Source: a virus | Lineage: Duplodnaviria; Heunggongvirae; Uroviricota; Caudoviricetes | Length of the DNA stretch: 40,105 nt | Reading direction: 5' to 3' (one strand) | IMG/VR virus record: IMGVR_UViG_2537562190_000015 | The notes under the pieces: model-generated | What the model saw: only the letters and a program-made list of their open reading frames with translations | Databases searched by the model: none | What the model was told of the DNA's origin: nothing | Shown: positions 31,959 through 36,140 of the stretch, one piece after another | Layout: each line of letters starts with the position of its first letter | Position numbering within the stretch: the stretch's first letter is position 1 | Program-made: the position numbers and the translations under genes

Positions 31959-32896
31959 CCCCTGAATCCTGCCGGGATCTGGCTGTAGTCCACGTTGTCG
32001 TAACTGGATTTGAAGTACGGGTCTTCGCGTTTTTCGGTGTACGTGCTGACGGACGGTGATAAGCGCAGGGAAAGCTCATCCCATTTTTCCCGCAACTTCG
32101 ACGGGCTGAGCACGTTACGGCACCAGAACGGATCGCGGCTGACGCGGCTGTACATCTCGCAGATTTGTTTGTGAGTACGACCATCCTGCACACACATCAG
32201 GCGAATTTCGTTTGCCCAGGCTGTCCAGTTCGGTTCTTTGGGACGAACCACCTCGCCGTCACATTCGGCGGCTTGCTCGTACAGGGCGATGATTTTTTTC
32301 CAGAGCCACTGTGCGCAGGTCAAATCATCCTGCGTTCCCCACTGGCGCTTTTTAGGGCTGAATACAACCGCATCAGGATGGCGAGTTAAAAAATCCTGTT
32401 CATCCGTCTGCGTGTCCGGTTGCGAAGCGTCCGGACGAGAAGGTTTTTTATCTGACGGATCATGTTTTGATTTTACTGACGGATCCCCGCCAGATTCTGA
32501 CGGGTGAAAACCCGCTTTTTTGCCAGATTTCGACGCATCAAATTTTGACGGGTCAGATTTTGATGCGTCAGATTTTGACGGGTCAGAATCTGACAGTTGA
32601 GAAAATGCCGCTGCCTGAAGCTTCGCAACGTTAAGCTGATAAACATTCGACGCATTGCGGTTACCCTGGCGACGCGCCTTACGCGTTAACCAGCCTTCTG
32701 CTTCCAGCCGTGCGATAGCCGTCCTGACGGTACTCATCCCCGCGCCAATCTGACGGGCAATAGTTTCAATTGATGGCCAGCACACACCTTCGTCATTACT
32801 GAAATCAGCCAGGCGGGCCATAATTGCCACGCTGGATAATTTCATGCCTGATGCAGCGCAACCATCCCATACATAGCCGGTTAATTTAGTGCTCAT
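31955..32896 (-). CDS. replication initiator protein (O-like) containing the origin iterons
   Basis: N-terminal winged-HTH …SSVAIMARLADFSNDEGVCWPSIETIARQIGAGMSTVRTAIARLEAEGWLTRK; the middle encodes repeated SDSDPSKSDASKSDPSKFDASKSG, reflecting DNA iterons, as in lambda O. Confidence 0.75.
   Translation of the reverse strand: MSTKLTGYVWDGCAASGMKLSSVAIMARLADFSNDEGVCWPSIETIARQIGAGMSTVRTAIARLEAEGWLTRKARRQGNRNASNVYQLNVAKLQAAAFSQLSDSDPSKSDASKSDPSKFDASKSGKKAGFHPSESGGDPSVKSKHDPSDKKPSRPDASQPDTQTDEQDFLTRHPDAVVFSPKKRQWGTQDDLTCAQWLWKKIIALYEQAAECDGEVVRPKEPNWTAWANEIRLMCVQDGRTHKQICEMYSRVSRDPFWCRNVLSPSKLREKWDELSLRLSPSVSTYTEKREDPYFKSSYDNVDYSQIPAGFRG
32440..32600. repeat. ori: origin-of-replication iterons (about 6-7 copies of a ~15-17-bp CAGATTTTGACGGGT-like unit)
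   Basis: …CAGATTCTGACGGGT…CAGATTTCGACGCAT CAAATTTTGACGGGT CAGATTTTGATGCGT CAGATTTTGACGGGT CAGAATCTGACAG…, located inside the initiator gene. Confidence 0.75.
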
Positions 32897-33244: not shown

Positions 33245-33792
33245 GCGTTAGTTTCTCCACAGTCACGACACGCCACGGCGCCCGGAGCTGCACACTCGCG
33301 GGCGTCATTACTTTCTGAAATGCAAAAAATTTTGTAGACCAGTGCTGCATGCTCCTGCAGCTTCGAAATTGAGAGGTACAGCTCGTCGTTAATTGCTGTC
33401 TTCTCATGCGGTTCCACTACACCGTCTTCAATTGCTGAACGAATCTGTTTTGAATAACTGCCGATCTGTTCAATGACCTCCAGCAGGCGTTGGTTGATAT
33501 CGGCGTTGTCCACATCCTCGACATCAGGAAGAGACACAAAGACGCCATTTGCAGACTGCGCCACAGCGTCAGCAATGAAGTGAGTTCCACCAGCACGTTG
33601 CAAAATCATTGCCCATCCCAGCGGGAAAATCTGATCGCCATCGGCACGAAGGCGGTTAAATAATGCGTTCTCTGTTACATCCAGCCAGTCAGCAGCTTCA
33701 GCGTACCCCCCCGGCAACGCTGCGATAGTTTTTCTGACAGCTTTCACGTACCACTCAGGCTGTTTTTCTACTTTCCAGTGATGCTTACCCAC
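33241..33792 (-). CDS. CII-like / YdaT-like early regulatory protein (183 aa)
   Basis: Sits immediately downstream of cro and overlaps it; family assignment is from position and vague recollection only. Confidence 0.4.
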
Positions 33793-34045
33793 GGTTCACC
33801 TCCTGTTCCTGTGGTTTAAACCCATTCTGGTTTTGGCTAGATTGAAAACGTGCCGGATAAAGAATCTGCATTTCGCTGACTTCACCCTTAAAAAAATTGG
33901 CTAAACGTTCTGCAAGCTCGATAGATGGAATCTGCTCCAGCCTCTCAATACGACTCAACGTCGCTGGATTGACTTGAACACCCGCAGCAACATGCTGCAA
34001 AGTGAAACCATGCGCCTTACGCACATTTCGTAATGGTGATTGCAT
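33785..34045 (-). CDS. cro: Cro-like HTH repressor
   Basis: 86-aa ORF MQSPLRNVRKAHGFTLQHVAAGVQVNPATLSRIERLEQIPSIELAERLANFF…; XRE-type HTH; divergent from cI. Confidence 0.75.
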   Translation of the reverse strand: MQSPLRNVRKAHGFTLQHVAAGVQVNPATLSRIERLEQIPSIELAERLANFFKGEVSEMQILYPARFQSSQNQNGFKPQEQEVNRG

Positions 34046-34142: not shown

Positions 34143-34835
34143 ATGAACATAGGAAACCGAGTCAGACAACTTCGCCAAGCGAAGAACATGAAAATCGCCG
34201 ATCTCGCTGAAGCGATAGGAGTAGATGCGGCGAACATCTCGCGCTTAGAAACGGGTAAGCAAAAACAATTTACCGAACAAACACTGAGTAATATTGCCAA
34301 GAGCTTAGGTGTTGATATTGCTGATCTCTTTACCTCTGCCCACAAAAGTAATACTGTATATAAAAACAGTAATAATGAGGATGTTGCGCAGGTGAAGGAT
34401 GTGTTCCGTATTGAAATGCTGGATATCAGTGCCAGTGCGGGAAATGGCCTTATCCAGGGCGGTGATGTCATTGATGTGATTCATGCCATCGAATACAGAA
34501 CTGATAATGCTGTATCAATGTTCGGCGGACGACCAGCCAATCACATCAAAGTTATCAACGTTCGTGGGGACAGTATGTGTCCAACCATTGAGCCAGGAGA
34601 TCTCATCTTCGTTGATGTCAGCATCAATCAGTTTGATGGTGATGGTATATATGTCTTTGGTTTTGATGACAAAATATACGTTAAAAGACTTCAAATGATT
34701 CCTGACAAACTGCTGGTGATTTCTGATAACCAGATTTACCGTGAATGGGGAATTACTAGCGAAAACGAACACCGATTCATGGTCTTTGGAAAGGTCTTAA
34801 TCAGTCAGTCGCAAACCCTTAAGAGACATAATTAA
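34143..34835 (+). CDS. cI: CI-type prophage repressor (HTH plus S24 LexA-like autopeptidase)
   Basis: 230-aa ORF; N-terminal XRE HTH (KIADLAEAIGVDAANISRLETGK); Ala-Gly cleavage site (SASAGNG); S24 motifs GDSMCPTI (Ser) and KRL (Lys). Confidence 0.9.
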   Translation: MNIGNRVRQLRQAKNMKIADLAEAIGVDAANISRLETGKQKQFTEQTLSNIAKSLGVDIADLFTSAHKSNTVYKNSNNEDVAQVKDVFRIEMLDISASAGNGLIQGGDVIDVIHAIEYRTDNAVSMFGGRPANHIKVINVRGDSMCPTIEPGDLIFVDVSINQFDGDGIYVFGFDDKIYVKRLQMIPDKLLVISDNQIYREWGITSENEHRFMVFGKVLISQSQTLKRHN

Positions 34836-34877: not shown

Positions 34878-34940
34878 TTACCTATAAATTTGCATATCAC
34901 GCAAATATCACTTGCATATCTCGCAATTTAATTTTATCTT
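34878..34940 (+). promoter_or_regulatory. OL operator / candidate pL promoter region
   Basis: TTGCATATCACGCAAATATCACTTGCATATCTCGCAATTTAATTTTATCTT: same TCACGCAA-type half-sites as OR, and a TTGCAT…17 nt…TATCTT -35/-10 candidate. Confidence 0.5.
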
Positions 34941-35100
34941 TTGTTCCAGACCAACTACAGGATTACAACAAAATCTGGTTGCAACACGGTGCATGTGTCG
35001 TAAGCAGTCAGTAAATGTCAAAAACGAACAGGCAGGACGCCCACGAAGTAGCCGCCTGGGGCATATGAAGTCCAGGATGATTCGTTAGCAACAAAAAAGC

Positions 35101-35126
35101 GCCCTACAGGACGCTTAGCTCTTTAA
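35101..35126 (-). terminator. intrinsic terminator of the antisense zinc-ribbon gene
   Basis: Minus strand AAGCGTCC-tgta-GGGCGCTT followed by TTTTTT, 30 bp after the stop at 35155. Confidence 0.55.
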
Positions 35127-35154
35127 CAATCTGGATATCCACAACAGTAGTAAT

Positions 35155-35646
35155 CTACAGATTGCCGTTAAGTTTTCTGGACAACTCCTCAATGGATGGA
35201 GGCGATACGTAATCCGGATTTTTATTCATCAGAAACTTATTTTCACAGTGGAGGCACCTGCTTTTATGAAAAAGCTCATCTTCGCTAACCGGGAATGGTT
35301 GAAGTATCGATACTATCTTTTGTCCAAAACATTTTGGGCAAAGATGCATGGTTATGCTGCCACCGTTCACGATTACCTCCTTCGAGTATACAAAAGTACC
35401 CGACTCAAGTTGGTTAAGGATATAGCCTTCCGTCTGAGCCTCAAAGTTTTCGAATTCTGCAATTTTAGCTTTGAGAGAAGCATTTATTTCTTGATAAGAG
35501 CCCACCAGTTCAACGAGAGACACGCATTCGCGCTGAATAGACGCAAGCTTTGAGTTCAGCTCACCAATAGCCGCATTTACTTCAGCTTGAGTTTTTGCCT
35601 CGTTCATTAGTTTTGCAATCTGGGCTGTTTCACGAATAGCCGTCAT
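35155..35646 (-). CDS. hypothetical coiled-coil plus C-terminal zinc-ribbon protein (~163 aa); candidate lysogen-expressed moron
   Basis: MTAIRETAQIAKLMNEAKTQAEVNAAIGELNSKLASIQRECVSLVELVGSYQEINASLKAKIAEFENFEAQ… then …HLCPKCFGQKIVSILQPFPVSEDELFHKSRCLHCENKF (CxxC…CxxC). The upstream part of the 259-aa ORF-track frame is Arg/Pro-rich and was judged non-coding. Confidence 0.55.
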   Translation of the reverse strand: MTAIRETAQIAKLMNEAKTQAEVNAAIGELNSKLASIQRECVSLVELVGSYQEINASLKAKIAEFENFEAQTEGYILNQLESGTFVYSKEVIVNGGSITMHLCPKCFGQKIVSILQPFPVSEDELFHKSRCLHCENKFLMNKNPDYVSPPSIEELSRKLNGNL

Positions 35647-35946
35647 TGCTGCCGTTAATTCAGCGATCACATTGAATACTCTTATTGTTGTTGGGGATAT
35701 CCAGATTAACCGAATCCTTGTTGTTGGGGAATAACCAGGTCCACCTCGCCTGATGTGGCTAAAAGCAGGCACATAACAGCTAAGTATTTTCAACCAGAGA
35801 GAATCCTTAGCGTTGTGGTGAATGCGGCTCAGCGCACGCGGGTTAAGGTTGAGGCTGACAGTCGACCTTCTGTGGATACCCACCCGCCTGGTGTGCAACC
35901 TTCGCCAGGCACCGGGAGGCACCCGGCACCACAACTTTATGCTGTG

Positions 35947-36003
35947 TGTAGTCCTGGCGGTACCAGTTTGTACCCTTGCTTCCGGCTGGTACCGTCCTTT
36001 TTT
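35947..36003 (+). ncRNA. candidate small RNA 3' end / intrinsic terminator with partial resemblance to DicF
   Basis: 9-bp stem CGGTACCAG…CTGGTACCG followed by TCC TTTTTT; the segment CCTGGCGGTACCAGTTTGTACCC resembles the DicF core TTGGCGGTATCAGTTTTACTCC as recalled from memory. Confidence 0.3.
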
Positions 36004-36004
36004 G

Positions 36005-36091
36005 CAAAACAGAGAAGAGCATCACCGGACGACGGGCTCATAACCCAATCCATCCGGGCGGCTGCCACCGCAGGTGTTCTTCTCTGTTTTG
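36005..36091 (+). other. long imperfect hairpin (14-bp perfect arms CAAAACAGAGAAGA / TCTTCTCTGTTTTG plus 4 bp), candidate RNase III processing site in the early leader
   Basis: Inverted repeat read directly; it encloses a ~46-nt GC-rich loop and sits 50 nt upstream of the first early ORF's RBS. Confidence 0.5.
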
Positions 36092-36140
36092 TGGAGAAAC
36101 CAACCGACCTTGCAAGGTCGATATGATGAGGAGCAGCAAA

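Follow-up and report, generated by a model that had tools for sequence, protein, structure and literature searches.

Two direct repeats upstream of a prophage zinc-ribbon gene as the putative promoter–leader head of a portable moron cassette

The repeats and the gene downstream

The 40,105-nucleotide stretch of DNA considered here (the window; IMG/VR record IMGVR_UViG_2537562190_000015, Caudoviricetes) is a DLP12/lambda-like prophage that carries quuD, essD, nohD, lambda-type tail genes and intD at a tRNA-Arg, and that is 100% identical to Escherichia coli O103:H2 12009. Within it, two direct repeats lie just upstream of a minus-strand gene for a zinc-ribbon protein, which we refer to as the cargo. 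On balance, comparison with related loci makes it probable in our view that the repeats form the promoter–leader head of a portable moron cassette, in which the distal copy would supply an element at the −35 position, a spacer and a −10 hexamer, while the proximal copy would supply the start site and a CA-rich leader. The features at the center of this analysis are the following, with positions given in window coordinates.

35155–35670, minus strand: cargo gene with GTG as start codon; its 171-amino-acid product combines a coiled coil with a zinc ribbon at the C terminus (phrog_1244, function unknown)
35679–35683, minus strand: Shine–Dalgarno sequence AAGAG, as read from the sequence, 8 nt before GTG 35670
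35685–35704, minus strand: proximal repeat (copy 1), coding strand CTGGATATCCCCAACAACAA, with its CCCCAACAACAA box (35696 to 35685) beside the Shine–Dalgarno sequence
35718–35738, minus strand: distal repeat (copy 2), coding strand CTGGTTATTCCCCAACAACAA, with TTCCCC (35731 to 35726) at the −35 position

On the plus strand, the exact 13-mer TTGTTGTTGGGGA occurs at 35685–35697 and again at 35718–35730. The full units are TTGTTGTTGGGGATATCCAG (35685–35704, 20 nt) and TTGTTGTTGGGGAATAACCAG (35718–35738, 21 nt, one base more); they are 13 bp apart and have a start-to-start period of 33 bp. As these units are read on the strand opposite the gene, their coding-strand readings are those listed above. 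The only other exact direct repeat of at least 13 nt within 60 bp in the window belongs to the origin iterons (32542/32572), and any such repeat appeared in 1.5% of dinucleotide-preserving shuffles. The repeats are real and far beyond chance, which bears out the preliminary description of this DNA, where two direct repeats had been reported at 35682–35740. No further copy of the motif was found elsewhere in the 40-kb prophage; a third, degenerate copy lies at 35801–35818, inside a neighboring leader RNA described below.

With respect to the gene itself, the protein matches phrog_1244 with an E-value of 9e-60, and no Pfam or PADLOC assignment was found for it. The start codon is most likely GTG 35670 and not ATG 35646, because RefSeq annotates 35155–35670 and a Klebsiella homologue begins with ATG at the corresponding codon. 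Accordingly, the repeats are located about 15–68 bp upstream of the probable start codon, a correction of the 35–95 bp upstream of an ATG that had been proposed. Opposite the zinc-ribbon gene, an antisense open reading frame (ORF) of roughly 100 amino acids (35248–35553, plus strand) is open in almost all phrog_1244 loci (94–103 amino acids). It is probably a codon-composition artefact of the coiled-coil gene, though it is oriented in the direction of early-left transcription.

Conservation and reuse of the head

All 79 informative loci with a homologue of the zinc-ribbon gene carry both repeats. The promoter-proximal placement that had been claimed for the repeats stands; they are non-random, strongly constrained and present in every homologous prophage that could be judged. 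The element was found in 1,525 of 5,426 complete E. coli genomes (28%) and in 19 species representatives from five families of the Enterobacterales, namely Enterobacteriaceae, Hafniaceae, Pectobacteriaceae, Yersiniaceae and Erwiniaceae. In IMG/VR, a pattern search returned at least 116 stretches with both boxes. Spacing was identical in every one of these matches, even though the pattern searches tolerated gaps of 15–25 and 8–14 nt. A comparison of E. coli with a Klebsiella phage gave 88% identity for the element and, for the cargo coding sequence, about 57% in global alignment (about 71% over the part aligned by BLAST); the downstream region cannot be aligned.

The flanks of the element diverge between loci. 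Specifically, conservation stops right after the proximal box, and unrelated sequence classes lie to its left, each with its own cargo-specific Shine–Dalgarno sequence and start codon a few nucleotides past ...CAACAA on the minus strand. In every cargo family the Shine–Dalgarno sequence is found 0–6 nt and the start codon 12–20 nt past the proximal box, and other cargoes have GGAG or AAGGA at the place of AAGAG. At the opposite end, the sequence beyond the motif CAGGC, with which the right border closes, is unrelated from locus to locus.

The head of about 95 bp that carries the repeats precedes at least four unrelated cargo families, every one of them on the minus strand: the zinc-ribbon protein, a membrane protein (phrog_6315) with a short ORF before it, a 98-amino-acid protein and a 157-amino-acid multi-pass membrane protein. 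It is also independent of immunity type, which is CI-type in the window and RacR-type in O157:H7, where the head adjoins the RacR-type immunity region, and in K-12. Taken together, these comparisons argue that the repeats are not specific to the zinc-ribbon gene and are part of a portable head reused by many enterobacterial prophages.

Promoter-like anatomy on the cargo strand

Read in the direction of the cargo, the head consists of the distal box TTCCCCAACAACAAGG, 17 bp of variable sequence and fixed length, the hexamer TAATCT, 6 nt, the proximal box CCCCAACAACAA, the Shine–Dalgarno sequence and the start codon. Three further features follow from this layout.

35709–35725, minus strand: predicted promoter spacer of 17 bp, comprising the rest of the distal box and 4–6 free positions (about 35709–35714)
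35703–35708, minus strand: −10-like hexamer TAATCT, separated from TTCCCC by 17 bp and from the proximal CCCC by 6 nt
35696–35698, minus strand: predicted transcription start of the cargo mRNA, 5–7 nt downstream of the −10-like hexamer

Two near-invariant blocks emerge from a profile of 76 distinct elements and from a cross-family alignment, TATTCCCCAACAACAAG at the distal box and TAATCTGGATATCCCCAAC at the proximal box, and the former is the best-conserved part of the entire element (at least 97% in the conservation profile). The 4–6 positions between the blocks differ freely in base but are constant in number; on the outer sides, before the distal block and after the proximal block, length does change. 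Over these 76 elements, and over 19 species, the TAATCT hexamer is near-invariant; it has A at −11 and T at −7, and the variants found at its position include a perfect TATAAT in one subfamily (L215) and GATAAT in some others. From the distal CCCC to the hexamer the distance is fixed at 21 nt, equivalent to a 17-bp spacer, and more than 200 matches showed no length variation; the Rac prophage has an 18-bp spacer. In one locus (L254) the proximal CA box is replaced and the distal box and TAATCTGGATATC are kept. Both the −10 hexamer and the fixed-length spacer of 17 ± 1 bp agree with what is expected of a sigma-70 promoter. Compared with shuffled sequence, the predicted leader has less structure (z = +0.9), and folding of the head gave no signal on either strand (z = −0.3 and +0.4).

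In the arrangement we favor, the proximal copy would be the working leader. Transcription would begin at about 35696–35698, the mRNA would start with (AU)CCCCAACAACAA, the CCCCAACAACAA box accounting for roughly its first 12 nt, and this C/A-rich, unstructured 5′ end would lead straight into the Shine–Dalgarno sequence and GTG 35670. The distal copy would have been turned into the promoter, with its CCCC box setting TTCCCC at −35 and the 17-bp spacer next to it. The segment that matches the start-codon region (CAATGTG) reads TAATCTG upstream, and would thereby provide the −10 hexamer TAATCT.

A parallel, independent head family precedes a second group of cargoes, those of SieB type, in ev207, 606R2, Kp4866-6, Pocitis76 and at sieB of the K-12 Rac prophage. 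Its geometry is TACCCC, 17–18 bp, TAnnnT, 7 nt, ACCCC, Shine–Dalgarno sequence and ATG, preceded by the same type of pseudoknot block that forms the right border in the window (see below). Both copies have the box ACCCCTACAG.GAG, the box-to-hexamer distance is 21–22 nt, and the hexamers TAAACT, TAATAT, TAAAAT and TAACAT occur at the same distance as TAATCT; the A before CCCC falls at the seventh position. Over both head families the box-to-box period ranges from 33 to 35 bp, and the −10-like hexamer keeps a constant distance from the distal box. A promoter would predict exactly this combination of a fixed distal-box-to-−10 distance and a flexible period, since the interval from −10 to +1 can flex, whereas helix-phased sites would not. 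Both box variants coexist in E. coli.

The K-12 member of this group (L288; NC_000913.3, 1,418,560–1,418,675) was observed to be a diverged duplicated head at Rac sieB with TGT-TAACAT, an extended −10, between its boxes, and it is a convenient system for the promoter model. A wider set of SieB heads from IMG/VR was uninformative, as 80 of 80 loci were 99–100% identical to K-12.

Origin of the repeats by duplication

The upstream and downstream units can be aligned over about 40 nt in four lineages (the window, ev207, 606R2 and Rac), and at most 0.15% of shuffles score equally well. The alignment spans the Shine–Dalgarno-like segment, where AAGGA stands against AAGAG, and in it the start-codon region faces the −10-like hexamer (CAATGTG opposite TAATCTG, and GATGAAC opposite GATAAAC). 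The repeats are therefore a tandem duplication of a leader and translation-initiation region, with about 33 bp as its period, and the upstream copy now bears promoter-like elements. The preliminary description had offered "a duplicated promoter element" as one possibility. This came near the outcome of the comparison insofar as a duplication is concerned; what was duplicated is the leader, Shine–Dalgarno and start-codon region, which survives upstream as a decayed tandem copy. That upstream unit has the only conserved −10-like hexamer, at a fixed 17 bp from the distal box.

The cassette in the early-left operon

The surroundings of the head comprise a set of features on the plus strand of the early-left (PL) operon, along with the terminator of the cargo gene.

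32542–32590, plus strand: origin-type iterons (A)TTTTGACGGGTCAGA, with a 30-bp period, inside the replication-initiator (O-like) gene
34890–34940, plus strand: OL/PL, with CI operators TTGCATATCACGCAA (34890) and TTGCATATCTCGCAA (34912) and a predicted promoter TTGCAT-17-TATCTT
35091–35116, minus strand: AAGCGTCCTGTAGGGCGCTT and a run of T, the cargo gene's intrinsic terminator, which is conserved as the cassette's left border
35118–35129, plus strand: rrn-type boxA GCTCTTTAACAA, as read from the sequence, on the strand of the PL transcript at the cassette entry
35128–35140, plus strand: inverted 13-mer AATCTGGATATCC, an inverted copy of 35695–35707 (the −10-like hexamer and the start of the proximal unit)
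35741–35770, plus strand: conserved block CCAC..GCCTGA.GTGG..AAAAG.CAGGC; right border, predicted to form an H-type pseudoknot (CCAC/GTGG and GCCTG/CAGGC)
35782–36005, plus strand: STnc100-like leader RNA of the early-left operon, upstream of yfdP, with an intrinsic terminator at about 35958–36003

The cro gene (33785–34045, minus strand) is divergent from the gene for an S24-type CI repressor (34143–34835, plus strand). In an operator search, the CI operator TTGCWTATCWCGCAA was found once between cro and cI (34108), twice just past the cI terminator (34890 and 34912) and nowhere else. At the corresponding place SfV has a canonical TTGACA-17-ATAATG directly after the cI terminator, and PL of Salmonella phage ST64B likewise lies directly past it. 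Given operators after the cI terminator and the arrangement of SfV and ST64B, PL is predicted to fire rightwards from about 34940 toward yfdP-yfdQRST-xis-int. PL transcription would then be antisense through the cassette, and between PL and yfdP it would meet, in order, a conserved leader, the cargo terminator, boxA, the antisense cargo gene, the repeats, the conserved block and the STnc100-like RNA.

In ST64B, the PL leader and the STnc100-like RNA are present with nothing between them, such that PL leads straight into the RNA. The stretch from the terminator to the pseudoknot block therefore represents an insertion into the PL leader. As in a moron, it is present or absent between otherwise collinear phages, it has its own terminator (35091–35116), and its cargo varies by locus. 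Head, cargo and terminator make up a cassette that sits antisense in the leader of the CI-repressed PL operon, between boxA and the STnc100-like RNA.

The left border is conserved as terminator, boxA and AATCTGGATATCC. The boxA is kept at this border in nearly all cassettes, across bacterial families, and follows the hairpin at 35091–35116, exactly where transcripts from PL run into the untranslated antisense cargo. This position suggests protection of the PL transcript from Rho by Nus factors and boxA. The AATCTGGATATCC inverted repeat is perfect in nearly all loci, and with its inverted copies on both sides the cargo is therefore flanked by 13-bp inverted repeats; no covariation indicative of pairing between the two arms was found. 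Two side observations concern the left 13-mer: in some loci a degenerate CA box continues it, and in a few two-gene cassettes a plus-strand ORF comes straight after it. Between PL and boxA lies a short, highly basic ORF (MCRKQSVNVKNEQAGRPRSSRLGHMKSRMIR; approximate coordinates 34996–35091, plus strand), the 3′ part of which (...GGATGATTCG...) is kept in many loci. Judging from its sequence, it could encode an N-like peptide or merely be conserved leader RNA.

At the right border, the stems of the pseudoknot block are almost invariant, and its loops, of which the third is A-rich, vary in sequence and length. In the stems 99.7% of cells are paired and most pairs never vary; two G:U variants favor the plus strand. 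In Rac the stem GCCCGG/CCGGGC replaces GCCTG/CAGGC, which is a compensatory change. SfV, SfII and phiES15 have the pseudoknot block without the repeats.

The adjoining RNA matches Rfam STnc100 (RF02076) over its full length and at the same position as in ST64B, with 40.3 bits and an E-value of 2e-7; since this is below the gathering score of 47, we call it STnc100-like only. In ST64B, a noncoding RNA (STnc1310) and the two genes downstream of the repressor are co-induced under prophage-inducing stress (PMC7067206). The first hairpin of the RNA (arms 35771–35785 and 35805–18) covaries between species and has loop inserts of about 100 nt in several genera, the K-12 small RNA KilS is the counterpart of its 3′ part, and a 32-nt piece of it is 94% identical to phage P1 upstream of tciA. 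RefSeq annotates 35815–36126 (plus strand) as a "frameshifted hypothetical protein", and SfIV has a fused ORF here; this interval is better explained as a structured leader RNA than as a pseudogene.

Weighing of the interpretations

A number of observations weigh against the promoter–leader assignment. In terms of the −35 region, TTCCCC (TACCCC in SieB-type heads) fits TTGACA at 3 of 6 positions and falls short of a sigma-70 −35 element. A sigma-70 consensus scan found no promoter here, and a position weight matrix gave 6.0 bits, the same as the median of the best scores in random 210-bp windows and hence background level. A search for experimental transcription starts found none for this element or for K-12 sieB (the start of the neighboring KilS RNA is mapped at 1,418,502 in K-12), and expression of the cargo in the lysogen is presumed from moron architecture. 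The approximately 17 invariant nucleotides of the distal box exceed what a poor −35 element needs, and the promoter model leaves the inverted 13-mer at the left border unexplained. Furthermore, within the main family the boxes of a locus are more similar to each other than boxes between loci (permutation p of about 1e-4), and derived changes are shared by both boxes in Symbiopectobacterium, Trabulsiella and three further loci (L102, L208 and L223); each of the two box families likewise has its own box in both copies. Repeated contraction and re-duplication by slippage would explain this co-variation, as would, equally, a shared ligand. The inverted 13-mers, the pseudoknot block and the co-evolving boxes are unexplained features.

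One such ligand could be a trans-acting regulator for which both boxes are DNA sites, over the −35 region and the start site, acting by repression or by activation and repression. The copies do change together in several lineages and between both head families, the distal box is invariant over about 17 nt, and in the L215 subfamily +1 and −1 indels compensate so that the 33-bp period is preserved. Over the head families as a whole, however, that period varies by up to 2 bp, with no change in the spacing between distal box and −10. The head is moreover independent of cargo, immunity type and right flank, and therefore no phage-encoded partner travels with it; the occurrence of both box variants within E. 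coli likewise means that divergence of a host factor cannot explain the co-variation. Similarity of the copies through the Shine–Dalgarno and start-codon segments is predicted by duplication and not by a binding site. We consider a common regulator unlikely on these grounds, and the narrower proposal of the preliminary description, a dedicated dimeric or tandem-binding regulator of the zinc-ribbon gene, is not supported by repeats that precede unrelated cargoes under different immunity types, are unlike the CI operators and are absent elsewhere in the prophage. Similarly doubtful is a transcription start upstream of the distal copy, which would place both copies in a 5′ untranslated region (UTR) of about 60–95 nt as tandem standby or translation-enhancer sites or as sites for Hfq or CsrA, with the upstream unit as a decoy initiation region that has no start codon. 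This placement would suit boxes that are C/A-rich and unstructured, a proximal copy that always abuts the Shine–Dalgarno sequence and an upstream unit that retains a Shine–Dalgarno-like AAGGA. The sequence ACAAGGAU resembles the CsrA consensus, but its GGA is lost in several groups. The proximal copy and the Shine–Dalgarno sequence form five consecutive A-R-N triplets (AAC AAC AAU AAG AGU), a motif that is partly broken in variant lineages; A-R-N repeats near Shine–Dalgarno sites are a motif for the distal face of Hfq (PMC4104026). An upstream start would, in turn, call for a promoter beyond the distal box, where none is conserved: the −10 candidate in GGTGGATCCTG reads GACCTG here and GTCCCC or GGTTCT elsewhere, and the sequence past CAGGC is unrelated between loci. 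The strict length between distal box and TAATCT would be unexpected for independent RNA sites, and pairing with GcvB R1 was no better than that of shuffled sequence.

The remaining explanations shift the function to the PL transcript or do away with it. If the repeats acted on the plus strand, GU-rich segments of the PL read-through RNA, situated immediately 5′ of the pseudoknot and the STnc100-like RNA, would either base-pair with the cargo mRNA at its CA-rich 5′ end or refold the leader. The two G:U variants of the pseudoknot fit the plus strand only, the degenerate third copy inside the STnc100-like RNA has a predicted duplex of −21 kcal/mol with the distal-box region of the cargo strand (reached by only 0.6% of shuffles), and the co-induction of STnc1310 with its downstream genes (PMC7067206) would fit as well. 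Nonetheless, the head has no folding signal on either strand, and the PL read-through RNA is fully antisense to the cargo mRNA anyway. The excess of wobble-compatible changes (21 against 2), which we rejected as evidence for RNA–RNA pairing, is a base-composition effect of an A/C-only box and a more variable proximal copy, with transitions not enriched over transversions. Long-range pairing of the border 13-mers has uncompensated mismatches, and we discarded such a stem also because the left arm varies beyond the 13-mer and the right arm does not. We give a plus-strand role of the repeats little credence. Only a slightly better chance is accorded to a broader version, in which the whole frame (boxA, inverted 13-mers, duplicated head and plus-strand pseudoknot) would be a docking site for antisense cargo in the PL leader and the co-variation would reflect RNA cross-talk. 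There, the complement of the distal box would act as a seed in the STnc100-like RNA made on the plus strand upon induction, pair with the extreme 5′ end of the cargo mRNA, and so switch the cargo off on prophage induction. Least probable of all, to the point of being remote, is a neutral duplication or insertion scar without present function. A clear tandem-duplication origin and related sequence in the neighboring RNA would be in keeping with a scar, but near-invariance over five bacterial families in spite of divergence on both flanks, spacing fixed in every case, and retention of both copies at 79 of 79 informative homologous loci are not.

Several more specific candidates were rejected. 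Autoregulation by the zinc-ribbon protein is refuted because the same head precedes unrelated cargoes, and the boxes are not CI operators, being unrelated in sequence and also found beside RacR-type immunity regions. Replication iterons are excluded as well, with only two copies present, 2.7 kb from the O-like gene, and the true iterons located at 32542–32590. A lambda CII-type site would require TTGC tetrads, which are absent from both strands of 35700–35745. Mimicry of the AgvB/GcvB kind was dismissed since AgvB sits 3′ of PR′ (the PR′ moron site) and the GcvB R1 duplexes, at −10 to −11 kcal/mol, are equaled by 58–81% of shuffles. An HK022 put-like RNA was considered for the neighboring conserved region, and no STnc100 match was found in the HK022 PL region. 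For cargo insertion into a palindromic empty site, AATCTGGATATCCAGATT, the four IMG/VR matches were unrelated coding sequences. A second promoter in the pseudoknot block (TTTTCA-17-GATCCT) has a −10 that is not conserved, and a short upstream ORF ending at the TAA of TAATCT has its frame broken by 1-nt length differences between loci. A structured 5′ UTR finds no folding signal, and likenesses to sigma-54, sigma-E, sigma-32, sigma-28 and DnaA-box sequences, judged by eye, each fail on spacing or on the conserved core.

Relation to known systems

Lambdoid morons are promoter–gene–terminator units between conserved genes, in the account of Juhala et al. (2000) as cited in PMC4104026. Like them, the cassette has one accessory gene with its own terminator and apparently its own promoter, is present or absent in mosaic relatives (absent in ST64B), and is oriented against the surrounding operon. 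Unlike them, its head and both borders make up a conserved, reusable frame that is common to unrelated cargoes across bacterial families, with terminator, boxA and 13-mer on the left and duplicated head and pseudoknot block on the right; expression in the lysogen is presumed for the cassette. The closest parallel is with sieB, a superinfection-exclusion gene that in Rac, lambda and P22 lies within the PL operon and is expressed by the prophage. In K-12 Rac this gene fills the same slot in antisense orientation, between repressor-proximal genes and the kilS/kilR leader, and has a homologous head layout (pseudoknot block, two direct boxes and TAACAT between them). It differs in its box (ACCCCTACAG, compared with CCCCAACAAC here) and in a protein that is unrelated.

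Fixed slots with exchangeable contents are also known from P2 and P4, which have hotspots of variable anti-phage genes with conserved flanks (PMC9122126). Both these hotspots and the slot described here combine a fixed place, conserved borders and exchangeable cargo in temperate enterobacterial phages. The present slot, by comparison, lies in an untranslated operon leader, takes one small gene and has boxA at its entry, and SieB is the only one of its cargoes annotated for superinfection exclusion.

With respect to repeated regulatory DNA, the CII-activated promoters of lambda (PRE, PI and PaQ) contain direct repeats TTGC-N6-TTGC around a poor −35. They resemble the head in having direct repeats at a promoter with a poor −35 that is antisense to lytic transcription, whereas the repeats here are 12–21 nt long, 33 bp apart, at the −35 position and +1, and without TTGC tetrads, in a head independent of the phage regulatory module. 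The OL/OR operators and the origin iterons are likewise short repeated regulatory DNA of the same prophage, but their positions are different and their sequences bear no relation to the repeats. In the open-access literature searched, neither the duplicated head nor the conserved cassette frame was found described.

If the promoter–leader interpretation is correct, the head of about 95 bp and the boxA border would serve as a sequence tag for a very common accessory-gene slot of enterobacterial prophages, including those of O157:H7, O26 and O103, with a diverged form at K-12 Rac sieB. A search with this tag would retrieve SieB and several uncharacterised small proteins as candidates for exclusion or defence. 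The head would also show clearly how, in nature, the duplication of a translation-initiation region can give rise to a promoter, and would illustrate the carriage of a gene antisense in an essential operon leader, with boxA where PL transcription enters the untranslated stretch. Current concepts would be unchanged, and the cassette would represent a well-defined instance of moron biology.

A further observation in the window concerns the Rfam IS009 RNA (RF02111), which has a full-length match of 224 bits at positions 132–330 on the minus strand.

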